A stretch of 64,000 nt of DNA, from the NCBI GenBank assembly GCA_963741945.1, contig CAVUKA010000005.1:192001-256000 (forward strand). Direction: 5' to 3'. Under the pieces are notes generated by a model that was given only the letters and a program-made list of their open reading frames with translations, was not told the origin of the DNA and did no database searches. Origin of the DNA: an uncultured Gemmatimonadales bacterium. GTDB taxonomy: Bacteria > Gemmatimonadota > Gemmatimonadetes > Longimicrobiales > RSA9. Positions 4,106 through 50,318 of this stretch are shown here, in pieces (the stretch's first letter is position 1; each line of letters begins with the position of its first letter). The position numbers and the translations under genes were made by a program.

Positions 4106-4212
4106 GAGACTCCCGGTGGTGAGGTTGGATGCGCCGGCGCCAGCGCGGATTTGCCGTGAAGGAAACCTACTGCAGTGGCCCCGCGGTGGCCACGCGCGGG
4201 CTACGGCATGTC

Positions 4213-5262
4213 TTACCGGAGGACCTCGCGGCAGAGCCACTCCCCGACTTCCGCGGTGCTCAGCTTCCCTCCCAGGTCCCGCGTTGTGGCGCCACTGCGG
4301 ATCGCGGCGTCGACAGCCGCCTCGATCCGGCGGGCGGCGGCGCCGGCGCCGAGGTGATCGAGCATCAGGGCGGCGGTGAGCACCGCCGCAATGGGGTTGG
4401 CGATCCCCTGCCCGGCAATGTCGGGCGCGGACCCGTGAACGGGCTCGAACAGTCCGATCCGGCCGGGGTGCAGGTTCGCGGAGGGCGCCAGGCCGAGGCC
4501 GCCCACGAGGCCGGCGGCGAGATCGCTGATGATGTCGCCGAAGAGGTTCGAGGTGACGATCACCTGGTAGCGCGCCGGATGGAGGACCAGGTCCATGGCC
4601 AGGGCGTCAATGTACATGGCGCTCCGTTCCACGTCCGGGAACTCCGCGCCGACTTCGGCGAACACACGTCGCCAGAGCTGACCACTGTGGCGCATGGCGT
4701 TGGACTTGTCGGCGAGCGTCAGGGAGCGCCCGCGGTCGGAAGCGTGCTGGAAGGCGGCGCGGATGATCCGTTCGACTCCCTTCCGCGTGCTCACGTCCTC
4801 CTCGAGGGCGACTTCGTCGGGCGTGCCACGCTTGAATACGCCGCCCATGCCCACGTAGCTGCCCTCGGTGTTCTCGCGGAAGACAACGAAGTCCAGATCG
4901 GCCGCGGCGGCGTCGCGCAGCGGCCCGCGCTGTCCCTCGATGAGGCGAACGGGCCGCAGGTTCACATAGAGGTCCAGCCGGAACCGCATCCCCAGCAGGA
5001 TGTCGCGGGCGTGCTCGTTGCCGGGCACGCGTGGATCGCCGAGCGCGCCCAGGAGGATGGCGTCGTATGCCGAGCCGAGCTCCGCCATCTCCGCGTCGGT
5101 GATCGTGGCACCGGTCTGCAGGTACCGCTCGGCGCCCAGGTCCCACTCCACCAGCTCGAGACCGAGGGACATGTCCTCGTCCAGACAGCGGAGCACCCGG
5201 ACGGCTTCAGCCGTGACTTCCTGCCCGATCCCATCGCCGGGGACGACCGCGATTCTCGCCAT
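4213..5262 (-). CDS. Isocitrate/isopropylmalate dehydrogenase family enzyme (LeuB-like)
   Basis: PGDGIGQEV, FRENTEG, DKSNA, NLFGDIISDL, FEPVHGSAPDIAG. Substrate is uncertain because no leu genes are adjacent. Confidence 0.9.
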   Translation of the reverse strand: MARIAVVPGDGIGQEVTAEAVRVLRCLDEDMSLGLELVEWDLGAERYLQTGATITDAEMAELGSAYDAILLGALGDPRVPGNEHARDILLGMRFRLDLYVNLRPVRLIEGQRGPLRDAAAADLDFVVFRENTEGSYVGMGGVFKRGTPDEVALEEDVSTRKGVERIIRAAFQHASDRGRSLTLADKSNAMRHSGQLWRRVFAEVGAEFPDVERSAMYIDALAMDLVLHPARYQVIVTSNLFGDIISDLAAGLVGGLGLAPSANLHPGRIGLFEPVHGSAPDIAGQGIANPIAAVLTAALMLDHLGAGAAARRIEAAVDAAIRSGATTRDLGGKLSTAEVGEWLCREVLR

Positions 5263-5265
5263 TGC

Positions 5266-5706
5266 TCATTCCTCACCGGGAACGCGGACGATGAGGACAC
5301 CACGGGTGCCGTGGGCCACACACTGGAAGGGATACGATCCCGCAGGGGCGTCCCGCAGGACCACCACCCACGCCGACCCTTCCTCCACCAGCGGCGGTCC
5401 CCGCATCTGCATGCTCTCTTCCAGGAAGCGCATCGCCGCGGGCGACAGCTCGTCGCGTATGAACGCCACGGCGTGCGTCCGCCGGTCTCCGGCGATGAAG
5501 CGCACCGCGTCTCCCGGGGTCGCGCGCACCGTGTCGGGCACCAGCGTGTCATTGGCCTGCGCGCCGCCGATCCGCACGTCGTGCAGCGTCGTGCCGCTCC
5601 CGAGGTCGACGCTCGTCGAATCGTTCAGCTGCACCGATGCGCCCGGCTGCGTGCGGTCGCAGGCACCGCCGGAGAGGACGGCCAGCGCCGCCAGGGCGGA
5701 AATCAA
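5266..5706 (-). CDS. Cupredoxin-like lipoprotein (start uncertain)
   Basis: Hydrophobic stretch plus GGAC lipobox; PGDAVRF, THAVAF and YPFQCVAH match the plastocyanin/azurin fold. Confidence 0.7.
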   Translation of the reverse strand: MISALAALAVLSGGACDRTQPGASVQLNDSTSVDLGSGTTLHDVRIGGAQANDTLVPDTVRATPGDAVRFIAGDRRTHAVAFIRDELSPAAMRFLEESMQMRGPPLVEEGSAWVVVLRDAPAGSYPFQCVAHGTRGVLIVRVPGEE

Positions 5707-5738
5707 AACGCCGGAGCGCCCCGGGGGCGCTCCGGCGT
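5701..5738 (-). terminator. Intrinsic terminator after the cytochrome c gene
   Basis: Minus strand ACGCCGGAGCGCCC-CCG-GGGCGCTCCGGCGT followed by TTTGATT. Confidence 0.7.
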
Positions 5739-5757
5739 CAGTTCCGTGCTCAACCGC

Positions 5758-6246
5758 TCAGCCCTGGCCGAGCGACACGACGTATGCCGCAACGGCGTCC
5801 ACCTGTTCATCGGTGAGATTCGCTCCGCCCATCGGCGGCATCGGACCGGGGTGGCTCACGGGCTGCGGCACGCCCGTCTTGATGATGTTCACGATCTCGT
5901 CGTAATTCCGCCCGGAGGTGTGGAGCCACTCGTTGTCGGTGAGGTCCGGCGCCAGCGCGGTGCCCTTGGCGTTCGGACCGTGGCACGCCACGCAGCCACC
6001 CTGACTGGTGAAGATTCGACGCCCCTGCGTCACCTGCTCCTGCGTGATGCCTTCCGGCAGGTTCGCAGCGGTCGGCGTGCCCTCCTCCGCGCCTGCCGCA
6101 GCCATGCCCGTGTCGGCAGCCGGCGTGGTGCTCTCCGGCGCTGCCGACGCCGCCTCACCACCGCCCTGATCGCCGCCGCCGCAGGCGGCCAGTCCGAAAG
6201 CCGCTACCGCGGCCAGTGCAAGCATGCTCGAACGCGTGGCGCGCAT
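5758..6246 (-). CDS. Monoheme c-type cytochrome lipoprotein
   Basis: LAAC lipobox, Ala/Pro linker, CVACH heme motif, MPPMG axial Met. Confidence 0.9.
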   Translation of the reverse strand: MRATRSSMLALAAVAAFGLAACGGGDQGGGEAASAAPESTTPAADTGMAAAGAEEGTPTAANLPEGITQEQVTQGRRIFTSQGGCVACHGPNAKGTALAPDLTDNEWLHTSGRNYDEIVNIIKTGVPQPVSHPGPMPPMGGANLTDEQVDAVAAYVVSLGQG

Positions 6247-37073: not shown

Positions 37074-38006
37074 TTACAGCCTGAACGTCCCCGAAACGAG
37101 TCGTTTCTCCCGCTCCCCCTGGATCTCCGCCTCCAGCTCGACATAGGGCTCCAGTCCACTCCCCTTCAGCTTCTCCCGGAAGAGCTGGTCCAGCTGGAAA
37201 ACGCCCGCGGAGTTGGTCATCTCGATGAGCAGGCGGATCGGCTTGGTCTCGCCGCGGTCGATGTGGACGCGCTCGATCGCGGCCGCGGAAACGCTGTGGA
37301 TGCTGACGGAGCTCCCGCCCTCGAACGGGATGCGTGAGCGCCCTTTCGCCATGTCGAGCGCGTCGGCGATGCGGACGATTCCGGCCTCCAGGGTCAGCGG
37401 CGTGCCGCCGGAGCGGTGGGCGATGATGGCGTGGAGCACTTCGCTGCGGACGATGGTGGCCGTGGCGACGTCGTATTCCTCGGCGAGCAGCTCGCGCAGC
37501 TTCATCTGGGCGATGAACAGGGACATCTCCTCGTGTCCCGCCCTGTGGACGCTCATCCCCAGGTCGTGGCAGAGGGCGGCGAGGGCCACCACCACGCCGG
37601 CATCATCGGGCGTGAGCCCGTGGTCCTTCACGATGCTCGGCTGCACGTCGGCGTCTTCGAGCAGGTGGAGCAGGCGCACGGCGATGTTCATCACGATCTT
37701 GACGTGCACGGGCCCGTGGTCGGTCATCCCCAGCCGCGTGATGGCGTTCACGTTGGCCGCGGTCCAGAGCGCGTAGAGCTCATCGTCCCGGTTGATCCGC
37801 TGGATGATCCGTTTCAGCCGGGCGTTCCTCCGGTCCGGCACGTTGATCGCCAGCCGCCTGGCCATGCGCTCCGCCAGCGTGCGCGGGAAATCGTGCTCGG
37901 CCTCCGCCTCCGATGGAGCGCTGGACACCGGGTCGATCGCCTCCGCCTCCGATGCTCCCGCCGGACTCGTCTCCTCGCTTCCACGGGATCCGGGCTCTTC
38001 CGTCAT
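37074..38006 (-). CDS. HD-superfamily metal-dependent phosphohydrolase (COG3294-like)
   Basis: DHGPVH, CHDLG, HAIIAH, ADALDMAKGRSRIPF. Confidence 0.85.
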   Translation of the reverse strand: MTEEPGSRGSEETSPAGASEAEAIDPVSSAPSEAEAEHDFPRTLAERMARRLAINVPDRRNARLKRIIQRINRDDELYALWTAANVNAITRLGMTDHGPVHVKIVMNIAVRLLHLLEDADVQPSIVKDHGLTPDDAGVVVALAALCHDLGMSVHRAGHEEMSLFIAQMKLRELLAEEYDVATATIVRSEVLHAIIAHRSGGTPLTLEAGIVRIADALDMAKGRSRIPFEGGSSVSIHSVSAAAIERVHIDRGETKPIRLLIEMTNSAGVFQLDQLFREKLKGSGLEPYVELEAEIQGEREKRLVSGTFRL

Positions 38007-39100
38007 CTCGCTCCTTCCAGCGTGCGCAGCTCTTCCACCGCCGCCCGCACCACGGCGGCCTCGTCGGCTCGCACCGTCATGTGCGCCACCTTGCGCCCGG
38101 GCCGTGGCGCTTTGCCGTACAGGTGCAGGTGCACGCCCCGGTGCCGCAGCACGTCCTCCGTGGCCGGCAGCGCACCGATGAGGTTGACCATGGCGGCGTG
38201 CCCGCGCATGGACGTCGATCCGAGCGGGAGCCCGAGCACGGCCCGCACGTGGTTCTCGAACTGGCTCGTCTCTGCGCCCTCGATCGACCAGTGACCGGAG
38301 TTGTGCACGCGCGGCGCCATCTCGTTCGCCAGCAGGTGGTCGCCGACCTGGAACAGCTCGATGGCGAGCACGCCCACATAGCCGAGCGACTCAAGGACCT
38401 GGCGCGCGTACGCCTCCGCGGCCTCCTGCAGCGCTGCCGTGAGCCCGGGCGCCGGCGCATAGGATACCCGCAGGATTCCGCTCTCGTGGTGGTTCTCCAC
38501 GACCGGATAGAACCGTTCATCCCCGTCCACACCGCGCACGGCCAGGATCGACAGCTCGCGATCGAACGCGACGAACCCCTCCAGGATCAGCGGGCTCCCG
38601 CCCAGCGTGGACCACGCGCTGTCCAGCTCGTCGCGGGACCGGATCACCACCTGGCCCTTGCCATCGTAGCCGAAGCGACGCGTCTTCAGCACGGCCGGCA
38701 GCCCCACGTCCTCCGCCGCCGCCCGCAGCTCCGCCAGCGAGCCGACCGGTGCGAACGGCGCCGTGTCGATCCCGCGGTCGCGGAAGAACGTCTTCTCGAT
38801 CAGCCGATCCTGCGACGTTTCCAGCGCTCGCCGCGTCGGCCGCACCGGGAGATGGTCTTCGAGGTAATCCAGCGCCACCGCCTCGACGTTCTCGAACTCG
38901 AAGGTCACGGCGTCCAGCCCGTCCGCGAACCGGGCCAGCGCCGCCGTGTCGTCGTACGGCTCTGCGTGCAACGCTGCCACTTCCGCCGACGAACGCGGGT
39001 CTTTCGGGTCGAGCAGCCGCGTGCTCACGCCCAGCGGATAGCCCGCCAGCGCCATCATCCTCCCCAGCTGACCACCACCCAGGATCCCCAGCCGCATCAC
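38003..39100 (-). CDS. purK: N5-carboxyaminoimidazole ribonucleotide synthase
   Basis: [47 protein letters not shown]. Confidence 0.96.
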
Positions 39101-39591
39101 GTCTCCGGGTCTGGATGCGCCAGCACCCGCTCCGTCTGCATGCTGCGGAAGCGGTCCAGCGCTTCCCGTATCTCCGCGTACTTGTTCGACAGGATCGACG
39201 CCGCCAGAAGTGCCGCGTTCACCGCCCCCGAACGCCCGATGGACAGCGTGCCCACGGGCACCCCCGCAGGCATCTGCACGATCGACAACAGCGAGTCCAT
39301 CCCGTTCAGCGCCCGGCTCTTCACCGGCACACCCAGCACCGGGAGCAATGTCTTCGCCGCCGTCATCCCGGGCAGGTGCGCGGCCCCGCCCGCGCCCGCG
39401 ACGATGACTTCCAGCCCCCGATCCCGGGCCGAACTCGCGTAGTCGAACAGGAGATCCGGCGTGCGGTGCGCAGAAACCACCCGCTTCTCGTACCAGATCC
39501 CCAGCTCATCCAGCGTCTCCGCCGCGTGGCGCATGGTCTCCCAGTCCGATGTGGAGCCCATGATCAAACCCACCAGTGGTGTCTTCGACAT
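39097..39591 (-). CDS. purE: N5-CAIR mutase
   Basis: [34 protein letters not shown]. Confidence 0.97.
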
Positions 39592-39707
39592 CGTCGGATC
39601 ACCCTCGGCTGCCGTGTGCGTACAGGGACCGACGCGGCCCCCCGTCCAGGTCCCGAAGCGACGCCCTCAAGCTAGGAGACCGCACCCCCCCCGGCAAAAC
39701 TCCCGCT

Positions 39708-40644
39708 TCACGCCGCGAAGAAGTCCCGCGCATCCTCAGGCGGGTCGTGCAGCGACCACGCAATCGCCACCCCCAGGATGGTCAGCACCACCCCCAGCGC
39801 CAGCCACACCGGGATGTGCACCACGTCGGACAACAGCATCTTCAGTCCGACGAACGACAGGATCACCGCCAGACCGGACGGCAGGCGCCGGAAAAGTCCG
39901 ATCATTCCCGCCAGCGCAAAGTACAGCGAGCGCAGTCCGAGAATGGCGAACACGTTCGAGGTGTAGACGATGAAGGCGTCCCGCGTGATCCCGAAGATCG
40001 CGGGGATGGAGTCCAGCGCGAACATCACGTCGCTCGCTTCCACCACCAGCAGCACCACGAACAGCGGTGTGGCCGCAATGATCCCGCCCCGCCGCACGAA
40101 GAACCTGTCTCCCTGATACCGTCTCAATACCGGCATCGCCCGACGCGCCAGCCGAACCACAGCGTTGTCCTTCAGGTTCATCGCCGGCCCCTTGTGCCGG
40201 AACATCTTCACGCCCGTGTAGATCAGGAACGCCCCGAAGATGTAGATGACGAACTCGAACCGGTGAATCAGCGCCGTCCCAACCAGGATCATCGACGCCC
40301 GCAGCACCAGTGCCCCCAGGATCCCCCAGAACAGCACCCGGTGCTGCAGCCGCCGCGGTACCCGGAAATACGAGAACGTCAGCGCGAACACGAACAGGTT
40401 GTCCACGCTCAGCGACAGCTCGATGATGTAGCCGGTCAGGTACTCCAGCGCCGGCTCACCCCCTTCGAACCGCCACAGCCCCAGTGCGAACACCATCGCC
40501 AGTGCAACCCACGTCCCCGTCCACGCCAGCGCCTCGCGCAGCCCCACCTCGTGCGTGCGCCGGTGGAACACGCCCAGGTCCAGCGCCAGCATCCCCAGCA
40601 CGAACCCGTTGAAGCCGATCCAGAACCAGAATGTTCTCGCGCAC
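39708..40644 (-). CDS. TerC/Alx family membrane protein; apparent 1-nt frameshift just after the likely start
   Basis: LSVDNLFVF, QHRVLFWGILGA, FALDSIPAI, SNVFAILGLR. The likely GTG at 40644 is out of frame by one base; an in-frame alternative GTG lies at 40679. Confidence 0.88.
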
Positions 40645-40837
40645 CGCCGCTCCACCCTCTCCCCCGCCCACGTCCACACCTCGGTGGTCCGCAGGCGATC
40701 CCGTTATTGTGGTTGCATCCTTTTCCCGCACGACCGCCCCGCCACCCTACCGTTGCGGCGGCGCATCGCCGTATTGCGCGGCACTGCGGAGCGGGTTCTA
40801 ATGTAGTGGCTTCCTCAACGACGCGAACCGCATACCC

Positions 40838-43800
40838 GTGTCGATCCTCGATCGCTTGCTGCCGGATTTCCCCGAAGACCAGAAGGGCCAGCGGACACGC
40901 CTGCTGGGCCTGATGGGTGCGTATTTCCTGGTTGTCACGGCCGTGGGGATCATGAAACCGGCGAAGAACGCGCTGGCGCTGTCGGGGCTGCCCGCGGGCA
41001 CGTTCTACAGGACATACCTGGTGAGCGTCGCGGTGATCCTGTTCGTCCCGGTATACAATCGCCTGTCGGACTGGATCGGCTGGCGAAGGCTCGTTCCGGC
41101 CGTGGCGTTCTTCTTCACTGCGACGCTGGTCCTGTTCCGGCTGGCGTACCGCGAGGGGAGCATGGTATACGGGCTCGCCTTCTACGGCTGGTACGATCTG
41201 TTCTCCGCGGCGCTGGTGACGCAGTTCTTTGCCGGGACCCAGCTGCTCCTGAACGCGCGCACGGCGCGGAGCGCGTATCCGCTGGTGATCGGGGGGGGCG
41301 CGATCGGCGCGGCGCTCGGGGGTGGGATTGCGGCGGTGCTGGCGCACGTCATCGGGACGCCGGACCTGCTGCTGGTGGCGGCTGCGTTCATTCTGGCGTT
41401 CGGGATTGCGATCCTGTTCGTGTGGCCTGAGGACATGTCGGTGGCGGAGCGAGCCCGGGCCAAGCAGATCCGGCGGCGCGAGCGCGTTTCCGTGAGTGAG
41501 TTCCGGCGCGTGTTCTCGAACCCGCACGTGCGGCTGATCGCGGTCACGGTGCTGCTGGCGATCATGACCAAGCAGTTCGTGGACTACGAGTTCAACACGC
41601 TGTCCGAGCAGCAGTTCGGGACCGTCGATGCCATCACGCGCTTCCAGGCGATCGTCGGCGTGATCGCTTCCACTCTGCCCATCCTCTCCGTGCTCGCGCT
41701 GCGGCCGGTGCTTCGGCGCTGGGGTGTGGGTGTGGCCGTCTTCATCCTCCCGGTCCTGATGCTCGTTTCCACGGCCGTGATGGCGGTCGCCTTCAGCATC
41801 TACACGGTCGTGGTCGCCCGTACGTCGGACTTGACGTTCCGCTACTCTGCGGAGCGCGCGGGGCGTGAGATCCTGTACGTCCCGGTGCCGGACGAGATCA
41901 AGCTGAAGGCGAAGACGTACATCGACGTGGCCATCGAGAAGGGGTTCGGCAAGGCGGTCACCGCCGTCGTGATCTACGCCCTCGTGGACCTGGTGGGAAT
42001 TCCGCCTGCGCGGCTGCGCTTCGTGGTGGTTGCCCTGGCACTGGCATGGCTGGGCGCCACCGTGGCCATCCGCCGCGAGTACGTTCGCACCCTCGCCCGC
42101 TCCATCCGGGGCCGCTTCGCCAGCTTTCAAGGACTGTCCGTGCTCGCCGACGCCAGCACTGCGGGCGTGGTCCGGGGCGCGCTGACGGGCAGCGACCCCG
42201 TGCAGACCTCGTTCGCCCTGGACCTGGTCGACCAGAGCGCTGCGACGGACACTGCCCCGATCAAGGATGCGCTGCACGGGCTGCTCGAACACGAGTCACC
42301 GGAAATTCGGGCCAAGGCGCTCCAGATCCTGGCGCGGGACGCTGCGGCCATCGACGTCGACCGGGTGCGAGAGCGGCTCCACGACCCGGCGCGCGCCGTC
42401 CGCGAGCAGGCCGTCCTGGCGATGGTCGCGGCGAACCGGGGAAACGAGCGGGACACGGTGGCGGAGCTCCTGCGCGACCCCGACACGGGCGTACGCACGG
42501 CCACGCTGGCGTGTCTGACCCGGGGCGATCTCACTGTCGAGGGGAGTGAGGTGCTGGACCCGGGATACCTGGACGGTCAGTGGGAGCGCGCCTACGAGGG
42601 CGACCGCAGCGCGCGCGTGGAGCTGGCGCTCGCTGCCGGAGCCATGCGGACGCACCCGCGGGCGCGCGAACTCCTGGAGCCCTTCCTCCACGACCCCGAC
42701 CCCGTCGTCTCGTCCGCCGCCATCCGCAGCGCGGGGCTCATCGGCGAGTCGGATTTCCACGCGGCCATAATCGCCGGGCTCAAGGCGCCAGGCACGCGCC
42801 ACGCGGCAAGGGAGGCGCTGGCGGAGCAGGGCCCGCGGGCCGTGGACATCCTGGGCAGCTACCTGCTGGACGAGTCGGCGCACCCCTCCATACGGCGGCA
42901 CATCCCGTCCGTGCTGGCCCGCGTGCCCGACCAGAAAGCGGCGAATCTCATGCTGCACAGCGTGGTGGCGCCGGAAACGGACCAGATCCTGGACTACCGC
43001 ACGCTGAAAGCGCTGAGCCAGCTCCGCGCTCGCTTCCCGGACCTCACGTTCGATCGGGAGCTGGTGACGGCGTCCATCCACCGGGAGGTGGACGCCGCCG
43101 CACGCTACGCCCAGGCGCGCGGGTGCCTCGACCGCCTCCAGGCGCGTGGCCCCGCCGCCGGCCTTCTCGCCCGCTCGCTGACAGAAGCGTGGGCGGAGCG
43201 GCAGGAGGGAGTCTTCAGGCTCCTGGGCCTGCTCTATCCCCACGACGAAGTGTATCGCTGCTTCCTTGCCATCCGCGGCGATGACCGGTCATCCAGCGCC
43301 AATGCCGTCGAGTGGCTCGAGGAAGTGCTCGACCGCCCCCTCTTCGAGCGGGTGGCCCCGGTCCTGGGAGAAGCACGGCTCCCGCGCGCCATGCCCGCGC
43401 CGGAATCCACGCTGGTGCCGCTCCTCACCGACGGCGATCCATGGATCGCCCGCCTCGCCGTGGCGGCACTGGTCGAGATCCGGGCAGGCTGGAGCCTGGA
43501 GGCCGTTCGTGGTATCATCGTCTCGTCCACCAGTGTCGATCTCCGCGACCTGGCCGAACGCCTGCTCGCGGATGGCAGCGCCGATATCGCCGGTCCCATG
43601 GATCTGATCGAGAAGGTATTCCTCCTCCAGAAGATCGATCTCCTCCGGGACGCCAGGAGCGCGCACCTCGCGCTGCTGGCGTCCATCGCGGAGGAGGTCG
43701 AGGTGGAGGCGGGCACGGTCCTGATCCATGAGGACGAGCCGACGGACGCCATGTACGTGGTGGTGGACGGACGCATCGAGATGCGAGGCGTGACGGACCA

Positions 43801-44008
43801 GCGTCTCCAGGCCGGACCCGGCCAGGCCTTCGGCACATGGGCGCTGATCGACGAGGCGCCCAGCCTGGTCACGGCCACGACGGTCATGCCGAGCCGGCTC
43901 CTCCGGATCACGCGCAACGAGTTCTACGATCTGCTGGCGGACCATTCCGAGATCGCCCTCGGGCTTCTCCAGGGACTGGCGCGCCGCGTTCGCACGCTGG
44001 TGGCCTGA
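40838..44008 (+). CDS. Npt/Tlc (ATP/ADP translocase-like) MFS domain fused to HEAT repeats and a C-terminal cNMP-binding-like domain
   Basis: About 12 TM with REILYVPVPDEIKLKAKTYIDV signature; HEAT repeats (HESPEIRAKAL, DPDTGVRTATL); LIEKVFLLQKIDLL...YVVVDG...FGTWAL. Confidence 0.85.
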   Translation: MSILDRLLPDFPEDQKGQRTRLLGLMGAYFLVVTAVGIMKPAKNALALSGLPAGTFYRTYLVSVAVILFVPVYNRLSDWIGWRRLVPAVAFFFTATLVLFRLAYREGSMVYGLAFYGWYDLFSAALVTQFFAGTQLLLNARTARSAYPLVIGGGAIGAALGGGIAAVLAHVIGTPDLLLVAAAFILAFGIAILFVWPEDMSVAERARAKQIRRRERVSVSEFRRVFSNPHVRLIAVTVLLAIMTKQFVDYEFNTLSEQQFGTVDAITRFQAIVGVIASTLPILSVLALRPVLRRWGVGVAVFILPVLMLVSTAVMAVAFSIYTVVVARTSDLTFRYSAERAGREILYVPVPDEIKLKAKTYIDVAIEKGFGKAVTAVVIYALVDLVGIPPARLRFVVVALALAWLGATVAIRREYVRTLARSIRGRFASFQGLSVLADASTAGVVRGALTGSDPVQTSFALDLVDQSAATDTAPIKDALHGLLEHESPEIRAKALQILARDAAAIDVDRVRERLHDPARAVREQAVLAMVAANRGNERDTVAELLRDPDTGVRTATLACLTRGDLTVEGSEVLDPGYLDGQWERAYEGDRSARVELALAAGAMRTHPRARELLEPFLHDPDPVVSSAAIRSAGLIGESDFHAAIIAGLKAPGTRHAAREALAEQGPRAVDILGSYLLDESAHPSIRRHIPSVLARVPDQKAANLMLHSVVAPETDQILDYRTLKALSQLRARFPDLTFDRELVTASIHREVDAAARYAQARGCLDRLQARGPAAGLLARSLTEAWAERQEGVFRLLGLLYPHDEVYRCFLAIRGDDRSSSANAVEWLEEVLDRPLFERVAPVLGEARLPRAMPAPESTLVPLLTDGDPWIARLAVAALVEIRAGWSLEAVRGIIVSSTSVDLRDLAERLLADGSADIAGPMDLIEKVFLLQKIDLLRDARSAHLALLASIAEEVEVEAGTVLIHEDEPTDAMYVVVDGRIEMRGVTDQRLQAGPGQAFGTWALIDEAPSLVTATTVMPSRLLRITRNEFYDLLADHSEIALGLLQGLARRVRTLVA

Positions 44009-44036
44009 GCACCGCTCCCCTTCCCCTCCGTGAGAC

Positions 44037-44516
44037 ATGCCTGAGCCACAGACCGCCACCGTCATGATCGTGGACGACGAGGAGATGGTCGCCACCGCGC
44101 TCCGCAGCTTCCTCGAGCTGGAGACGTCGTACCGGATCCTCACCTACACCTCCCCGTTGACGGCGTTGGAGACCGTGGAGTCCGAGCCGGTGAACGTCGT
44201 CCTGGCGGACTTCATGATGCCGCAAATGGACGGGATCAGCTTCCTCCGTCACGTTCGGGACAGGAAGCCGCAGGCCACGCGGATCCTGCTCACGGGGTAC
44301 GCGGACAAGGAGAACGCGATCCGGGCGATCAACGAGGCAGGGCTCTATTACTACCTCGAGAAGCCGTGGAACAACGAGCACCTGAAGCTGGTGATCCGCA
44401 ACGGCGTGGAACGCTCGACGCTCTTCAACGAGCTGGAGAGCCGCGTCATGGCGCTCGAGGACGCCAACCAGGAGCTGTTCGAGATCCGGCGGCGCCTGGT
44501 GAAGGCGTTCCTGTGA
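44037..44516 (+). CDS. Response regulator (REC plus short coiled coil, no output domain)
   Basis: IVDDE, LADFMMPQMDG, LLTGY, LEKPW. Confidence 0.92.
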   Translation: MPEPQTATVMIVDDEEMVATALRSFLELETSYRILTYTSPLTALETVESEPVNVVLADFMMPQMDGISFLRHVRDRKPQATRILLTGYADKENAIRAINEAGLYYYLEKPWNNEHLKLVIRNGVERSTLFNELESRVMALEDANQELFEIRRRLVKAFL

Positions 44517-45997
44517 CAGGGCGCGCGAGCCCGCTTTATCACCCGGTCCGCGCGCGTGCCGCCCTGGCGGCGTGGGCGTTCGGAGCGGGAATCCTCTTCC
44601 TGCTCGTCCTCCACCTGCCGCTCGATTTCCGCTTCTTCGGACTGACCGCCGTCTGGTTCGCGGCTTCCGCGCTCTCCCTCCACTGGCTCACGGGTCACCG
44701 CGGCAGACCGTACTTCTTCTTCTTCCGCTTCGCCATCTTCTCCGTGGAGGTGCTCGTGGCCGTGCTCCTGGCCCACTACGTGGGCGCGAGCAGCTGGCTG
44801 GCCACCCTCTTCCTCCTCTTCCCCACCATCGAGTGGAACATGCTCTACCCCGGGGGCTGGGGATTCGCCGGCTCGGTCCTCGCCATCATCGCCAGTGGTA
44901 CGCTGATCCTGGCCGAGGCCGTGGGGACCGTCCCCGCCGGTGCGCTGTTCCTGACCATCGAGCCGGAATATGCCGAGCCGCGCTACGCGCTGGCCGCCTT
45001 CTTCATCTCCCTTTCCGTCATTGCCGGGCTCTCCACGGTGGTGGGCCGCTACGCGGAGGCCGGGCGACGCCAGAGCCGGGAGCTGGCCCTGGCCAACGAT
45101 CGATTGACGGAGCTGTCCGACGACCTGCGCCGCTCCCACTCCGAAGTGGAGGAGGCCTACGCACAGCTGCGGAGCACGCAGGCAGAGCTGGTCGGCTCCG
45201 CCAAGCTGGCCACGCTCGGCAACCTGATCGCAGGCGTTGCGCACGAGATCAACACCCCGCTCGGCGCGCTGCACAGCAACCATGACACGATGCACCGCGC
45301 GCTGACGCGCCTCCAGGCGATCCTGGCGGACGAGGTGGTGGACGAGGACGAGCTCGAGGATGTCCGGCGCATCGTCAAGGCCGTGGACGGCGTGACGGAA
45401 ACCAACAACCTGGCCGTGGACAGGATGATGCGGCTGGTGACCAGCCTGCGGACGTTCGGCAGGGTGGACCGCTCGGAAGTGGATTTCGCCGACCTGCACG
45501 AGGGGCTGGAGAGCACGCTGGCGATCCTGGCCCACGAGCTCAAGGACCGGGTCCAGGTGGCGAAGGAATACGGGGAGCTGCCGCGCGTCGAGTGCTATCC
45601 CAACCAGGTGCACCAGGTGTTCATGAACCTCATCGTGAACGCGGCGCAGGCCATCCACGGCAGCGGAACCATCACCATTCGTACCCGGCACGAGGGGGAC
45701 CAGGTGGCCATCGATGTCGGGGACACGGGCGTGGGGATCACCGCCGAGAACGTCGCGCGCATCTTCGACCCCGGCTTCACCACGAAAGGGAAGCGGATGG
45801 GCATGGGGATGGGGCTGCTGATCACTCGCCAGATCGTGGATCGGCACCACGGCCACATCGACGTCCGCAGCGAGCCCGGCCGCGGCACGACCTTCACCGT
45901 CCGGCTCCCCGTCCGGCTCCCCGCGTCCGCGCGCCCGAATCGCGACCCTTCCACCCAAACCGCGCCCGCCGGCACGCCGGCCGGGGGGCGCCAGTAG
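44513..45997 (+). CDS. Multi-TM sensor histidine kinase
   Basis: About 6 hydrophobic segments, AHEINTP, MNLIVNAAQA, DTGVGI, FTTKG, GMGMGL. Confidence 0.92.
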   Translation: MTGRASPLYHPVRARAALAAWAFGAGILFLLVLHLPLDFRFFGLTAVWFAASALSLHWLTGHRGRPYFFFFRFAIFSVEVLVAVLLAHYVGASSWLATLFLLFPTIEWNMLYPGGWGFAGSVLAIIASGTLILAEAVGTVPAGALFLTIEPEYAEPRYALAAFFISLSVIAGLSTVVGRYAEAGRRQSRELALANDRLTELSDDLRRSHSEVEEAYAQLRSTQAELVGSAKLATLGNLIAGVAHEINTPLGALHSNHDTMHRALTRLQAILADEVVDEDELEDVRRIVKAVDGVTETNNLAVDRMMRLVTSLRTFGRVDRSEVDFADLHEGLESTLAILAHELKDRVQVAKEYGELPRVECYPNQVHQVFMNLIVNAAQAIHGSGTITIRTRHEGDQVAIDVGDTGVGITAENVARIFDPGFTTKGKRMGMGMGLLITRQIVDRHHGHIDVRSEPGRGTTFTVRLPVRLPASARPNRDPSTQTAPAGTPAGGRQ

Positions 45998-46005
45998 GAG
46001 GTCCC

Positions 46006-46971
46006 ATGCCCAGGACCCGATCCGCCCGCTTCACGGCTCTCTCCGCGCTCCTGCTCATGCTCCTGGCCCCGCCGCTCCGGGCGCAGGGCAACTTCCTCGC
46101 GCCGGTGGACACGATCGAGGCCCGGTTGCGAGCCGGCACCTTCACCATCATGGACGAGCGCGGGTCCAGGTTCGAGGGCGACAGGACCAGCCGCGTGGCG
46201 CTGAATTTCGGGAATGATGCCATGCTGGTGGTCAAGTGGGCGCCCGCGGCCCAGGGTGGAGAGGCGTACAACAACAGCCCGCGCTACGAGGCGGCCGCCT
46301 ACGAGCTCCAGAAGCTCTTCCTGGACCGGCACGAGATCGTGGTGCCGCCCACCGTCCTGCGCGCGTTCCCCCTGACCTGGTACCGGACGCTGGATCCCCG
46401 GGCGCATGCCACGTTCCTGGACACGGAGTCCGTGCTCGTGGCGCTCCAGTACTGGCTGTTCAACGTGACTCCCGACGACTACTGGGATCCCGACCGCGTC
46501 GACACGGATACCGCCTACGCCAGGGGCATCGGGAACTTCAACATCTTCACCTACCTGGCCCGGCAGTCGGATGACAATCAGGGCAATTTCCTGATCTCCG
46601 GCGACTCCGCCGCATGTCGCGTGTATTCGGTGGACAACGGCGTGGCCTTTGCCAGCCAGGCCAGCGACCGGGGCGCCAACTGGCGACGCATCCGCATCAA
46701 ACGCCTCCCGCGCGCCACGATCGATCGTCTCCGCGCGCTCACCGAGGACAGCCTCACCGCCCGACTCGAGACTGTTGCGGAGTTCCGCGTCGCGCCCGAC
46801 GGGACCCTGGAGTCCGTGGACCCGGGGCCGAACATCTCCCCGGACCGCGGCATCCGCCGGGCCGAGAATCGTATTCAGCTCGGGCTCACGCGCGGCGAGA
46901 TCCACGGTGTCTGGCGCCGGGTGGAAGGACTGCTGCGCGACGTGGACCGCGGCCGCTACGAGCTCTTCTGA
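46006..46971 (+). CDS. Signal-peptide-bearing atypical kinase-fold protein (PI3K/PI4K/Fam20-like motifs)
   Basis: AGGAGG RBS; signal peptide (LRA-Q); VKW, RYEAAAYEL, VPPTV, SDDNQGNFL, VDNG. Confidence 0.7.
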   Translation: MPRTRSARFTALSALLLMLLAPPLRAQGNFLAPVDTIEARLRAGTFTIMDERGSRFEGDRTSRVALNFGNDAMLVVKWAPAAQGGEAYNNSPRYEAAAYELQKLFLDRHEIVVPPTVLRAFPLTWYRTLDPRAHATFLDTESVLVALQYWLFNVTPDDYWDPDRVDTDTAYARGIGNFNIFTYLARQSDDNQGNFLISGDSAACRVYSVDNGVAFASQASDRGANWRRIRIKRLPRATIDRLRALTEDSLTARLETVAEFRVAPDGTLESVDPGPNISPDRGIRRAENRIQLGLTRGEIHGVWRRVEGLLRDVDRGRYELF

Positions 46972-47005
46972 GCGCGCCCTGCCCCCGTCCGGCGGCAGCG
47001 GGCGT

Positions 47006-47045
47006 GCAGAAGCGGCTGGCGGGGCGACCCGCCAGCCGCTTCTGC
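47006..47045. terminator. 18-bp perfect hairpin between convergent genes
   Basis: GCAGAAGCGGCTGGCGGG-GCGA-CCCGCCAGCCGCTTCTGC. Confidence 0.7.
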
Positions 47046-47072
47046 TTCACACCCGCCGGTGTCCCGGGGTTC

Positions 47073-50000
47073 CTATCTCGTGCCCTGCGGTCGCCCCGGC
47101 GTGTACGGTGCGCCCAGCTGATCGATCCGCACCGCCAGCGACCGGACGTCGCGCGCCACCGCGTCCACGGCGGGCCCGACCTCGGCCATCTGGTCACGGG
47201 CGATCTGCAGCTGATCGCGCTGTGTTCCCGTGGGCGCTGACGTGGATCCGTACGACGAGTACACCGCCGTCTGGACCCGGTCGCTGATCGACGGCGTGGT
47301 CTCGAACTGTCGGGTGGCCACGCTCCGGTCCCCGTCCAGCTGGACCTGCAGCTCCGCGATCCGCTCCTCCAGCGCGCGCGCCTGCTCCAGCACGCTGGTC
47401 GGCACCGTGGTCGAGCGCAGCGTGGCCTGCTTCAGGCTCGCCAGCGTCGTGGCCGCCTCGTCCAGGCGACGCGACGCGCGCATCACCTCGCCCAGCAGCC
47501 CGTCCGCTTCCTGCTGGAACGCCACCAGCGCGGCGCGGTCATCCGTGGCCAGCGTGGCGTTGTTCAGCGGGACCACCTGGAACTCCACCGGGGCCACCAT
47601 CTCCGTTGCCACGCCGTCCACCACCTTGGCCAGCGATACGCGGTAGGTCCCCGGGGCGGCGTACGGCCCGTCACGACCCTCGTCCAGCGGCTTGAAATCG
47701 CCCCGGGCGTCCACCGGCGTGCTCGCCGGATAGCGCAGGTTCCAGGCGATCCGGTGGATCCCCTTCGACGGCTTGGCCGCCATGCGCCGGACGATCTCGC
47801 CCGACGGCTTGGTCACCGTGAACAGGAGGTACGGGTCCTGCTCCCGGTCCTCCGCCCGCATCTCCTCGAAGCTCGGGTACCCCACGTCGCGTCCCGCCTC
47901 CGCGGTCTTCTTCTCCGCTTCGTGCCTCGCCTCTTCCCGCGTCTGGATGTCGTCTTTCAGGTAGTACGTGAACACCGCGCCGAACGGCGGGTTGTCCGCG
48001 CCGTAGTAGCTCTCCCCCTGGAAGCCCTTGCCGCTGTAAGCGAACGGGTCCTTCACGATGTAGAGGAGGGCATCGCGGGTCGGGAAGATGTGCGCGTCCT
48101 GCGACAGCGTGGCCGCGTCCGCGTGGCGCAGCGCCGAGTAGTCGTCCAGGATCCAGAAGCCGCGGCCGAAGGTGGCGAGAACGAGGTCGTTCTCCGGCTC
48201 GTGGATCTTCAGGTCGCGCACGGCGATGGTCGGGATCCCGCCCTTGAGCTGGATCCAGTGCTGTCCGCCGTCGCGGGTGAAGAACACGCCGAACTCGGTG
48301 CCCGCGAAGAGCAGCTGCGGATCCACCGGGTCCTCGGCGAGGGTGTACACCGAGCCGCGCTCGGGCAGGTCGCCCGCGATGGACGTCCAGTGCGCCCCCT
48401 TGTCCGTGCTCTTCAGCAGGTAGGGCTTGAAGTCTCCGTTCTTCTTGTTGTTGAACGCCGCGAACACGGTGCCCGCATCGTGCAGTGAAGCGAGGACCGC
48501 ATCCACGTATGTCCGCTCGGGCACGCCCGGGAACCGGTCGTACCGCGTCCACTGCCCGCCGGCGTCCTCCGTCACCTGGATGAGCCCGTCATCGGTGCCC
48601 ACGTAGAGCAGCCCCTCCTCCACCGGCGATTCCGTCAGCGCCACGGCGTTGCCATAGATCGTGGTGGAGACGTTCTTCGCCACAGCGTCCATCCCCCACA
48701 CCTTGCCCATGACCGGGAGCTTGTTCCGATCGAGCTGCCGGGAGAGGTCCGGGCTGATGGCGCGCCAGCTGTCGCCCCGGTCGTCGCTCCGGTACACCCG
48801 GTTGGCCGCGAAATAGAGCCGGGTGTGCGAGTGGGGGCTGATCAGGAGCGGCGAGTCCCAGTTCCAGCGCAGCGCTTCCCCCTTCTCCGGCTGCGGCTGG
48901 ATGTAGACCCCTTCGCCGCTCTTCCGGTCGTACCGCTGCAGACCGCCGTACTGGCTCTCCGCGTAGACGATGTTCGGGTTCTCCGGGTCCACCTGGCTCT
49001 GGAAGCCGTCGCCGCCCGCGGTCACGAACCAGTCCGCGTTCACGATGCCGGCGCTGGAGATCGTCCGCGATGGACCACCCATGGAGAAGTTGTCCTGCGT
49101 GCCGCCATAGACGTTGTAGAACGGCTTCTCATTGTCCAGGGCCACGTCGTAGAACTGCGTCACCGGGAGGTTCGGCTTGAACTGCCAGCTTGCGCCCCGG
49201 TCGTAGCTCTCGTAGAGGCCGCCGTCGGTGCCCATGAGGTAGTGGTCGGTATCGGCCGGGTCGATCCAGAGCGCGTGGTTGTCCACGTGCTTGTTCTTCT
49301 CGCCCACCCGCTCCCACGTCTTGCCGCCGTCCGTGGTGATCATGGCGTAGGTGTCCATGGCCACCACCAGGTCACGGTCCTTCGGGTCGCAGATCAGCTC
49401 GTTGTAGTAGTTGCCGCTGCCGTTGTAGCTGTCCCGCTTGCTCCACGACGCGCCGCGGTCCGTGGAGCGGTAGACGCCGCCCTGCTCACCGCTGGCCTCG
49501 ACGATGGCATAGATGTAGTCGGGGTCGGCCGGCGAGATGCAGAGCCCGTAGCGCCCCACATCACCGGACGGCAGCCCCTTGGTCAGCTTGCTCCAGCTCG
49601 CCCCGCCGTCGGTGGACCGGTAGAGCGCCGACTCGGGGCCGCCGCCGATGTAGGTCCAGACGTGCCGGCGCCGCTGCCACGCGGCCGCGATGAGCAGGTC
49701 CGGGTCGCGCGGGTCCATGACCAGGTCCGTGACGCCCGTGTTCTCGCTGATGTCGAGCACCTTCGACCAGGTCTTCCCACCGTCTTCGGTCTTGTACAGC
49801 CCGCGCTCACCACCCGCGCTCCAGACCGGGCCCTGCGCGGCGACGTAGACCACGTCCGTGTTGCGCGGGTCGATCACGATCCTGCCGATGTGCTCGCTCG
49901 ACTCCAGCCCGACGCGCTTCCAGCTCTTCCCGCCATCCTCGGACTTGTACACGCCGTCGCCGTAGGAGACGCTGCGCTGCGCGTTGTTCTCCCCCGTTCC

Positions 50001-50318
50001 GACCCACACCACGTGCGCGTTCGACGGGTCGAGCGCCACCACGCCGATGGAGTAGGATCCTTCGCCATCGAACAGCGGCCGATAGCTGATCCCGGCGTCC
50101 GTCGTCTTCCAGACACCGCCCGACGCCGTGGCCACGTAATACTCGGCCGGGTTCGAGGGATTCACTGCCAGGTCGGCGATCCGACCGGACGTCATGGCCG
50201 GTCCGATCTCCCGCAGCGCCAGGCCGCGATATGTCGATGCGCTGGTCTCCTGTGCCGCCGCGGGCATTGCCGCCGGCAGCAGGAGTGTCAGCGCCAGGAG
50301 GGAGCGTGCGATCCTCAT
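47073..50318 (-). CDS. Exported VPS10/BNR (Asp-box) beta-propeller protein, glycosyl-hydrolase-like
   Basis: Signal peptide, IGPAMTSGRI, many S/TxDxGxxW repeats, C-terminal coiled coil. Confidence 0.88.
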   Translation of the reverse strand: MRIARSLLALTLLLPAAMPAAAQETSASTYRGLALREIGPAMTSGRIADLAVNPSNPAEYYVATASGGVWKTTDAGISYRPLFDGEGSYSIGVVALDPSNAHVVWVGTGENNAQRSVSYGDGVYKSEDGGKSWKRVGLESSEHIGRIVIDPRNTDVVYVAAQGPVWSAGGERGLYKTEDGGKTWSKVLDISENTGVTDLVMDPRDPDLLIAAAWQRRRHVWTYIGGGPESALYRSTDGGASWSKLTKGLPSGDVGRYGLCISPADPDYIYAIVEASGEQGGVYRSTDRGASWSKRDSYNGSGNYYNELICDPKDRDLVVAMDTYAMITTDGGKTWERVGEKNKHVDNHALWIDPADTDHYLMGTDGGLYESYDRGASWQFKPNLPVTQFYDVALDNEKPFYNVYGGTQDNFSMGGPSRTISSAGIVNADWFVTAGGDGFQSQVDPENPNIVYAESQYGGLQRYDRKSGEGVYIQPQPEKGEALRWNWDSPLLISPHSHTRLYFAANRVYRSDDRGDSWRAISPDLSRQLDRNKLPVMGKVWGMDAVAKNVSTTIYGNAVALTESPVEEGLLYVGTDDGLIQVTEDAGGQWTRYDRFPGVPERTYVDAVLASLHDAGTVFAAFNNKKNGDFKPYLLKSTDKGAHWTSIAGDLPERGSVYTLAEDPVDPQLLFAGTEFGVFFTRDGGQHWIQLKGGIPTIAVRDLKIHEPENDLVLATFGRGFWILDDYSALRHADAATLSQDAHIFPTRDALLYIVKDPFAYSGKGFQGESYYGADNPPFGAVFTYYLKDDIQTREEARHEAEKKTAEAGRDVGYPSFEEMRAEDREQDPYLLFTVTKPSGEIVRRMAAKPSKGIHRIAWNLRYPASTPVDARGDFKPLDEGRDGPYAAPGTYRVSLAKVVDGVATEMVAPVEFQVVPLNNATLATDDRAALVAFQQEADGLLGEVMRASRRLDEAATTLASLKQATLRSTTVPTSVLEQARALEERIAELQVQLDGDRSVATRQFETTPSISDRVQTAVYSSYGSTSAPTGTQRDQLQIARDQMAEVGPAVDAVARDVRSLAVRIDQLGAPYTPGRPQGTR

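Follow-up and report, generated by a model that had tools for sequence, protein, structure and literature searches.

In this study we describe a four-gene operon carried on a stretch of 64,000 nucleotides from an uncultured Gemmatimonadales bacterium (assembly GCA_963741945.1, contig CAVUKA010000005.1, positions 192,001 to 256,000 of the forward strand; the whole stretch is called the window below, and coordinates count from its first letter). The operon joins a transporter of the NTT/TLC type, a family known for ATP/ADP exchange, to an exported protein with a Fam20/PI4KII-like kinase fold, with a response regulator and a histidine kinase encoded between them. That transporter and kinase are functionally linked in some way is very probable. 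We give an even chance to the more specific reading that they form a regulated extracytoplasmic phosphorylation module, in which the exchanger would supply the kinase with ATP at the periplasmic face. Its fullest version, a periplasmic ATP-dependent phosphorylation of diderm bacteria in which a gated NTT-type exchanger would hand ATP to a docked or fused Fam20/PI4KII-like kinase and an exported PPP phosphatase would reverse the reaction, is put forward tentatively, at somewhat less than even. The genes and the parts of their products on which the argument turns are the following.

40838-44008, + strand: gene 1, 1056 residues, NTT/TLC-type MFS domain, HEAT repeats and cNMP-like domain (Pfam)
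40838-42127, + strand: MFS/TLC membrane domain of gene 1, about residues 1-430 (model, Foldseek and sequence search of the PDB)
42158-43597, + strand: HEAT-repeat region of gene 1, about residues 441-920, predicted to be cytoplasmic (HEAT_2 and HEAT matches within residues 479-662, Pfam)
43697-43945, + strand: cNMP-binding-like domain of gene 1, residues 954-1036, with an altered phosphate-binding cassette, FGTWALIDEAPS (PF00027)
44037-44516, + strand: gene 2, 159 residues, response regulator made up of a receiver and a short C-terminal helix, without output domain (Response_reg, 88.5 bits)
44513-45997, + strand: gene 3, 494 residues, histidine kinase with a membrane N-terminal part (about residues 1-180), a DHp domain and an ATPase domain (Pfam and hydropathy)
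46006-46971, + strand: gene 4, 321 residues, exported kinase-fold protein
46006-46083, + strand: signal-peptide-like N-terminus of gene 4, residues 1-26, with an Arg-rich start, a hydrophobic core and a ...LRA end before Q27
46084-46971, + strand: mature gene 4 product, Fam20/PI4KII-fold kinase domain (AF2, Foldseek and VIA-align)
46234-46236, + strand: Lys77 (alignment)
46288-46290, + strand: Glu95 (alignment)
46570-46641, + strand: catalytic loop D189-x4-N194 and metal-binding D210-N-G (alignment)

The product of gene 4 has a real kinase fold and looks active, as judged from its sequence and a predicted structure. Since a sequence profile of the family gave nothing significant against the PDB (the best match was Vps34, at E 0.88), a fold search was needed to place it. 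The AlphaFold2 (AF2) model, built from an alignment of 28 members (A1), reached a pLDDT of 85.6 and a pTM of 0.84, and Foldseek matched it in the PDB to PI4KIIalpha at 1.3e-6 and to Fam20 proteins at 4e-6 and weaker. In VIA-align the top group was tied, and comprised a hydra Fam20 bound to sugar (5xoo, Z 17.4, root-mean-square deviation 3.6 over 246 aligned residues), DrFam20C (16.8), human Fam20C (16.7), PI4KIIbeta (16.7), PI4KIIalpha (16.2, the PI4KII range being 15.3-16.7), Fam20A (16.0) and the Golgi casein kinase (15.7), with the next group clearly lower (Helicobacter pylori CtkA at 11.6, Vps34 and PI4KIIIbeta at about 10). The Fam20 alignments cover 246-257 residues, from about residue 20 to residue 321 of the model. 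A first-pass annotation, made from the letters of the window alone, had read a kinase fold into this protein from the order of its motifs and had likened it to Fam20C; the fold is borne out by these matches, with Z values of 15.3-17.4 for Fam20 and PI4KII, and the likeness holds at the level of structure.

The residues expected of an active kinase, namely an ordered Lys, Glu, catalytic Asp and metal-binding Asn and Asp, are all present in gene 4, with the putative roles of K77, E95, D189, N194 and D210 assigned by motif order and fold matches rather than by residue-level superposition. In alignment A1, K77, E95, D189, N191, G193, N194 and D210-N211-G212 are invariant, so the motifs singled out in the first-pass annotation (Lys, Glu, DxxxxN and D-N-G) are indeed those that the 28 homologues keep. 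We take the D-x-N-x-G-N and D-N-G loops to resemble the catalytic and activation loops of PI3/PI4 kinases, with which the Vps34 alignment agrees. The family is large, comprising 916 proteins in a word-indexed search and 501 clusters at 50% identity (E 0.001 or better), and the source names, as far as seen, are all 'hypothetical protein'. Among the best 150 of the 501 clusters D189 is kept in 148, and the full K-E-D-N-D set in 109 of the 129 representatives that cover the five sites; the other 20 deviate at one site or more, mostly in a conservative manner (E to D or Q, N to Q). Weak Pfam matches were found among the 28 homologues, to PI3_PI4_kinase (PF00454) in 18 of them (best E 6.8e-6), to ABC1 in four and to Fam20C in two (best E 0.064); against the PF00454 cut-off of 27.1 bits, the fused forms described below score 16-20 bits.

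The gene 4 product is predicted to be exported across the inner membrane. Its N-terminus reads MPRTRSARF-TALSALLLMLLAPPL-RA and is followed by a nearly invariant Q27, thus combining a positive n-region, a hydrophobic h-region (hydropathy segment 6-24) and a small residue at -1 in an A-x-A-type end, as in a Sec signal; the signal peptide claimed for the 46006 protein is borne out by this signal-type segment. By a crude hydropathy measure, an N-terminal hydrophobic stretch is present in 92 of 102 full-length representatives. In two further relatives, P0239 and P0276 (the latter seen on 41 contigs and called serine hydrolase by its sources), the kinase comes after a signal peptide and a domain like that of class-A beta-lactamases, an arrangement which fits an extracytoplasmic location. 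These two are of Myxococcales type, and the serine-hydrolase fusion may point to a substrate in the cell wall, or to a small molecule, in their branch.

In the case of gene 1, Pfam finds all three parts that had been proposed for it, with the TLC profile (PF03219) at 31.5 bits (cut-off 21), HEAT_2 at 59 bits and cNMP_binding at 55 bits (cut-off 27.5), so that an NTT domain, HEAT repeats and a cNMP-binding domain follow one another in a single protein, in the layout of the NTT-HEAT-cNBD fusions. The TLC profile matches in two stretches, the best being residues 314-415 on profile positions 392-491. A sequence search of the PDB with the MFS domain returned AtNTT1 as its sole match (2e-6), and the two proteins have the loop motif ...RE.LY.P....K.K.K..IDV in common. 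The AF2 model of this domain (alignment A2, 28 sequences) is all-helical with a pLDDT of 90.0, and its top Foldseek match is the ATP-bound NTT1 of Chlamydia pneumoniae (9j3n, E 7.6e-11, TM 0.78), followed by AtNTT1 (9j3l and 9j3m, with a TM of 0.79 for 9j3l); the first MFS protein outside the NTTs appears at 2.9e-7, and other MFS proteins trail the NTTs by three to four orders of magnitude in E-value. The MFS domain is hence an NTT/TLC relative, as the first-pass annotation had it, and nucleotide transport is a prediction that follows from this kinship in sequence and modelled fold. The 12-segment topology of the MFS fold would put the HEAT region on the cytoplasmic side, and the identity of the HEAT segment across class-A loci is 35-59%. 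Gene 1 is the only TLC-family gene found in the source genome, which has one kinase gene, adjacent to it.

The pairing recurs in other genomes, as the reading in the first-pass annotation requires. A scan for the kinase in one genome per species gave 269 relatives, the best 80 loci of which were classified by tblastn and a local hidden Markov model. The order TLC-HEAT-cNMP, response regulator, histidine kinase, kinase is found on one strand in 34 of the 80, while six have part of this order before it is cut, five have a TLC gene that ends directly at the kinase gene with neither response regulator nor histidine kinase, two have other arrangements, four have short DNA on both flanks and 29 have no TLC-like gene in the available DNA. 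Five of the six cut loci lie at a contig end; in the sixth (L076, Longimicrobiales) two transposase genes, with an rve integrase core and helix-turn-helix domains, occupy 3853-5960 in place of the MFS-HEAT part, and the locus resembles a natural transporter knock-out. Of the two loci arranged otherwise, one has the kinase ahead of a TLC-HEAT gene (L021, from a different clade of the kinase tree) and one has transporter, response regulator and histidine kinase downstream (L034). The linked transporters are TLC-HEAT-cNMP proteins, TLC-cNMP proteins in which HEAT is not detectable, or TLC-HEAT proteins; across the loci the regulatory parts vary, TLC and kinase stay constant, and the pair persists through at least four architectures. 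The genes that flank the operon in the window are poorly kept in the related loci (TerC in 0/80, the Sortilin-like gene in 4/80, PurE in 4/80), from which we take the four genes to be the conserved unit. An order kept in 34 of 80 loci whose flanks are not kept exceeds chance.

Across the phylum, an even sample of 251 genomes, G000 among them, was searched with kinase and transporter profiles and gives the same picture. The kinase profile matches 16 genomes, and in all 16 a TLC orthologue lies on the same contig and strand, within about 5.2 kb. Orthologues above 500 bits occur in 17 genomes in total, the seventeenth (G220) having a cut frame of 370 residues, and 102 more genomes contain distant TLC-like paralogues only (under 290 bits) and no kinase; one genome that is flagged as unpublished (G056) was counted only among those with distant paralogues.

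The closest form of association is the fusion of both partners in one polypeptide. In P0145 (804 residues) a TLC part is followed by an extra hydrophobic segment and then by the kinase, and P0275 (802 residues, on a 40.9-kb contig of different source) has the same layout and is 66% identical to P0145 in the kinase part. The extra segment, at about residues 485-506 between MFS and kinase, is preceded by Arg and followed by an A-x-A-type site; going by this arrangement, the fused kinase would lie on the side opposite to the MFS C-terminus, that is, in the periplasm, with the signal peptide in effect remaining as membrane segment 13. Gene 1 and the fused TLC part are homologues (23% identity; hhalign 99.5%, E 3e-22), the latter having no HEAT or cNMP domains. 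A metagenome scan with P0275 for more TLC-kinase fusions found one relative, cut by a contig end. Fusion counts are lower bounds, as a search for longer forms with the window kinase returned two kinase-Metallophos fusions and missed the TLC fusions. Co-folding of the MFS domain (A2) with the mature kinase (A1, residues 28-321), run without controls, gave a score of 0.00, which speaks neither for nor against a contact.

In a quick maximum-likelihood tree of the kinase with 87 rows (the window, the 80 loci and six proteins), which has SH-aLRT support only and many unresolved forks, the fusions form a long branch of their own (support 100), L021 groups with Marinimicrobia rows (99), and four of the five loci with direct TLC-kinase adjacency form their own clade (100), all three lying outside or apart from the main four-gene groups. 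This placement indicates that the link has been kept, or made again, in at least three separate parts of the family.

A further partner appears where the transporter is absent. A gene of about 430 residues lies 3' of the kinase in 10 of the 29 loci without a TLC-like gene, with a Metallophos domain in both copies scanned, and kinase-Metallophos fusions exist (P0126, P0128, P0274). The nearest solved relative of the Metallophos protein is the cold-active protein-tyrosine phosphatase of Shewanella (E 4e-39), also described as psychrophilic phosphatase I, a member of the PPP family (PDB 2z72, 1v73), with PP2A, BSU1 and ApaH more distant; these relatives mark it as a PPP-type enzyme. The KSB1 copy carries a hydrophobic, signal-like segment at its N-terminus, and the association suggests an exported kinase/phosphatase pair that carries out reversible phosphorylation, perhaps of proteins. 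With one protein query, this phosphatase was not found in the source genome, and it is absent from the window.

The two genes between transporter and kinase encode a two-component pair, with a receiver domain in gene 2 and DHp and ATPase domains in gene 3. Gene 2 is the REC-only regulator that had been proposed (Response_reg at 88.5 bits and nothing beyond it that resembles an output domain), and its best NCBIfam match is to the first 145 positions of a REC-HD-GYP type regulator. Lacking an output or DNA-binding domain, it is likelier to act by protein contact than by transcriptional control. Gene 3 matches HATPase_c at 96 bits and HisKA at 23 bits, under the cut-off of 26.9, and its hydropathy profile shows four or more hydrophobic segments between residues 17 and 177.

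From these parts a mechanism may be proposed. Its core would be the inner-membrane NTT/TLC-type exchanger together with the Sec-exported Fam20/PI4KII-fold kinase. The exchanger would pass cytoplasmic ATP to the periplasmic face and, like its relatives, take up ADP in return, possibly together with phosphate, and the kinase, at or near the transporter, would use the delivered ATP to phosphorylate an envelope substrate. A protein acceptor is mildly favoured, because members of the family are paired or fused with an exported phosphoprotein phosphatase of the PPP type. The HEAT repeats, the cNMP-like domain, the REC-only regulator and the histidine kinase may be accessory controls that open the exchanger only on demand, presumably through protein-protein contact rather than transcription. 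The role of the exchanger as supplier of the phosphate donor is the most economical explanation, since the kinase fold needs a nucleoside triphosphate in a place where none is expected and its partner, in two proteins joined to it, belongs to the one transporter family known for ATP/ADP exchange.

Several observations weigh against this proposal. In the periplasm of a diderm, free ATP might escape through porins, and periplasmic phosphatases would consume it. Gene 1 is a distant NTT branch rather than a canonical exchanger, as its sequence indicates, with the NCBIfam model for NTP/NDP exchangers (TIGR00769) at 28.3 bits against a cut-off of 387.2, and the window kinase has no match in Pfam, and hence in none of its kinase families (no PF00454 at E 0.1, no PF06702). 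Of the 29 loci in which no TLC-like gene lies close to the kinase, 13 extend upstream for 5.3 kb or more (three for under 500 nucleotides), so that an adjacent transporter is not always needed by the kinase family; in five of five such genomes, labelled KSB1, Marinimicrobia, Deferribacteres, Calditrichota and Gemmatimonadota, TLC-like genes are encoded elsewhere. The transposase-bearing locus lacks the transporter, of which only the cNMP-like tail remains, and yet its response regulator, histidine kinase and kinase are intact. The recurrence, moreover, is mostly within one phylum and the loci are not independent. The controls are affected as well. A multi-segment membrane histidine kinase, as described in the first-pass annotation, is present in the window, but only seven of the 34 four-gene operons share the membrane-bound form (the median spacing from response regulator to kinase being 286 codons), which places the sensor input outside the conserved core.

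Cyclic-nucleotide gating fares similarly. A canonical cyclic-nucleotide cassette has a Glu after F-G and an Arg before [ST]-A, both contacting the ligand. The window cassette is FGTWALIDEAPSLVTA, and FGTWALID..PS is what it shares with most of the 42 copies aligned; Thr and Ser occupy the two contact positions, again as in most of the copies. Of the suggested HEAT/cNMP gating, the cNMP-like domain stands, at 55 bits; control by cyclic nucleotides is doubtful because both contacts are replaced and the replacements are conserved, and, to judge from these residues, the ligand is probably neither cAMP nor cGMP. The direction of transport is a further difficulty. All characterised NTTs import, according to the available sections of PMC5381601 and PMC1951785, and PamNTT1, as described in the latter, is functionally asymmetric and kinetically biased to ATP import, so export would need this preference to be reversed.

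Four other explanations have to be weighed, which we take in descending order of probability. It is unlikely, if not very much so, that the MFS domain carries the acceptor or the product of the kinase rather than the donor, by flipping a lipid, exporting a glycan precursor or importing a phosphorylated product, with the donor arriving otherwise. The NTT similarity is weak at the sequence level, lipid and sugar carriers (MFSD2A, SPNS2, LacY) are among the lower fold matches, and the kinase is best matched in structure by, among others, a lipid kinase (PI4KII) and a sugar kinase (the hydra Fam20 with sugar), all of which would suit such a carrier; the top matches in fold and sequence are nonetheless ATP/ADP translocases, by the three to four orders in E-value given above, and a non-cytoplasmic phosphate donor would be left unexplained. 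Unlikely, too, is that the transporter imports external nucleotides, in scavenging or in ATP sensing, with the kinase-fold protein as a partner that binds or processes them. The import direction of the characterised NTTs speaks for this, as does a phosphodiesterase/nucleotide pyrophosphatase gene near the kinase gene in Marinimicrobia loci. On the other hand, nearly the whole family conserves the catalytic Asp and the residues for metal binding, which favours phosphotransfer over mere binding, the organism has genes for ATP and purine synthesis of its own, and pairing or fusion with a PPP-type phosphatase suits a phosphorylation cycle better than uptake. Import in the service of energy parasitism was also considered and rejected as unlikely for a genome of 4.09 Mb (96.7% complete) that has ATP-synthase and purine-synthesis genes, purE and purK lying close to the operon itself.

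We regard it as improbable that the exported protein is a regulatory pseudokinase, or catalyses another nucleotide-dependent reaction such as AMPylation, and controls the transporter or reports on the envelope. Fam20A, which is a pseudokinase, is among the close structural matches (Z 16.0), and 20 of the 129 representatives depart from the five-residue set; against this, the window protein and the remaining 109 representatives retain all five residues, and most of the departures are conservative. The least probable of the four, and very unlikely in our view, is that the genes are merely co-regulated, for instance as parts of one response to envelope stress or nutrients, and that transporter and kinase are not coupled in mechanism. 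Kinases without an adjacent transporter (29/80 loci) and TLC-like paralogues without a kinase (102 genomes) are what this would lead one to expect, but two independent TLC-kinase fusion proteins, the co-occurrence of the orthologues in 16 of 16 genomes and the persistence of the pair through at least four different architectures are not.

The delivery of ATP to an exported kinase, which we favour over these alternatives, has counterparts among known systems, each of which matches a part of the operon. In the canonical NTT/TLC translocases (NTT1 of C. pneumoniae, 9j3n and 9j3o; AtNTT1, 9j3j-9j3m; PamNTT1) the fold is like that of the gene 1 MFS domain, with a TM of 0.74-0.79 to the solved structures; gene 1 differs in its identity of 16-17% in the fold alignments, in a TIGR00769 score far under the cut-off, in its free-living host, in its long cytoplasmic regulatory domains and in a proposed direction opposite to the characterised import. 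The Fam20 secretory kinases (the Golgi casein kinase Fam20C, the Fam20B-like xylose kinase and Fam20A) resemble gene 4 in fold over nearly the whole mature protein (Z 15.7-17.4), and both have a signal sequence and act outside the cytosol, as predicted in the case of gene 4; gene 4 is bacterial, only 14-16% identical to them, and without a significant Pfam Fam20C match. We know of no characterised bacterial Fam20-like protein. In a protein atlas gene 4 has a look-alike (score 0.94) in a wholly bacterial cluster, 90% of whose members carry PF06702; it is a lead only, and indicates that Fam20-like bacterial proteins exist in databases. PI4KIIalpha and PI4KIIbeta tie with Fam20 in fold score and share the PF00454 signal seen in the homologues, but PI4KII works on the cytosolic face, whereas gene 4 is predicted to be exported. 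The nearest analogy in logic is SLC35B1/AXER, the ATP/ADP exchanger that supplies the ER/Golgi lumen with ATP for luminal kinases; by analogy, the operon may likewise pair an exchanger with a Fam20-type kinase outside the cytosol, with the differences that the carrier is here an NTT-type MFS protein, that the system is bacterial and that carrier and kinase are genetically linked and even fused.

The periplasm is taught to be free of ATP, and the known modifications of the envelope use lipid-linked or other donors. A conserved and sometimes fused association of an exchanger with an exported, active-looking kinase is the clearest genomic hint of bacteria that break this rule, and suggests that a free-living bacterium of soil type may carry ATP into a compartment usually thought to have none. 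If our proposal is true, bacteria would have their own equivalent of the secretory-pathway kinases of eukaryotes, and the Fam20/PI4KII kinase lineage would reach into bacteria. Bacterial physiology would gain kinase/phosphatase signalling, or modification of the envelope, outside the cytoplasm, and the widespread NTT-HEAT(-cNBD) clade, with its uncharacterised cyanobacterial and chlamydial members, would receive its first function. The transporter architecture itself is already published. NTT-HEAT-cNBD fusions with the same three-domain architecture as gene 1 were reported as monophyletic, widespread in free-living bacteria and of unknown function, with two sequences from Gemmatimonadetes and one from Marinimicrobia among the taxa named in the available sections of that article (Major, Embley & Williams 2017, PMC5381601); the same sections speculate on ATP uptake or exchange and mention no linked kinase, two-component pair or phosphatase, while here the subfamily is tied to an exported kinase. 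What appears to be new is that this transporter is linked to a phosphorelay, a phosphatase and an exported kinase of the Fam20/PI4KII fold, a combination for which no paper was found in the full text of open-access papers and bioRxiv. In the accessible portion of a Fam20 review (PMC7948968) bacteria appear only in the reference list. The operon offers defined proteins for assays of what NTT-HEAT(-cNBD) transporters do in free-living bacteria, a question since 2017.

The layout of the locus, in a window with a G+C content of about 70%, could be read directly from the sequence and agrees in every detail with the four co-directional genes, tight junctions and terminal hairpin of the first-pass annotation. 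To go by the names that homologues bear, the organism belongs to Gemmatimonadota and is of Longimicrobiales type. The four open reading frames are all on the + strand. The TGA of gene 1 (44006-44008) and the ATG of gene 2 (44037) are separated by 28 nucleotides, genes 2 and 3 overlap in GTGA (44513-44516, the start of gene 3 being the GTG at 44513), and the TAG of gene 3 (45995-45997) lies 8 nucleotides before the ATG of gene 4 (46006), with AGGAGG in between. The operon is bordered by a divergent TerC gene on one side and by a convergent Sortilin/BNR-type gene on the other. The remaining features are the following.

45996-46001, + strand: AGGAGG ribosome-binding site, overlapping the gene 3 stop codon and 4 nucleotides 5' of the gene 4 ATG
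47006-47045, no strand: perfect hairpin with an 18-bp stem and a 4-nucleotide loop, between convergent gene ends
37074-40679, - strand: HD-domain protein, purK, purE and TerC-family membrane protein, upstream of the operon
47073-50318, - strand: Sortilin/Vps10- and BNR-repeat protein, 1081 residues, convergent with the operon and kept only in the closest relatives (4/80 loci)

The 101-nucleotide stretch with the hairpin has a folding energy of -72.1 kcal/mol (z = -5.4), and none of 200 shuffles was as stable. A scan for promoters and terminators gave no promoter-like site and passed over the hairpin at 47006-47045, because no run of T follows it on the 3' side. A search of 39000-48000 against Rfam gave 0 matches at E 0.1, and hence no riboswitch was found before the divergent TerC gene or the operon, in the 158-nucleotide gap between TerC and gene 1. 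In read archives, a search for the operon returned three DNA runs from one study, the best with 0.49 of the words, and listed no RNA run.

A few observations on individual loci may be added. Two tandem kinase copies followed by a phosphatase gene are found in L078 (7680-9978), and two kinase copies lie 14 kb apart on one contig (C80) of G166, a genome of the window's own family, only one of them beside the transporter. In a Marinimicrobia locus (L032, 6687-8312) the kinase gene is followed by smpB and tyrS and then, some 2.9 kb downstream, by a gene for a type I phosphodiesterase/nucleotide pyrophosphatase, which has the same position in L033, L060, L061 and L062, a Marinimicrobia-labelled group; it may be another nucleotide-handling enzyme of the envelope. 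The kinase of L033, which carries a Thaumarchaeota label, is identical to that of L032 and has the same neighbours, probably as the result of a binning error in an archaeal metagenome-assembled genome.

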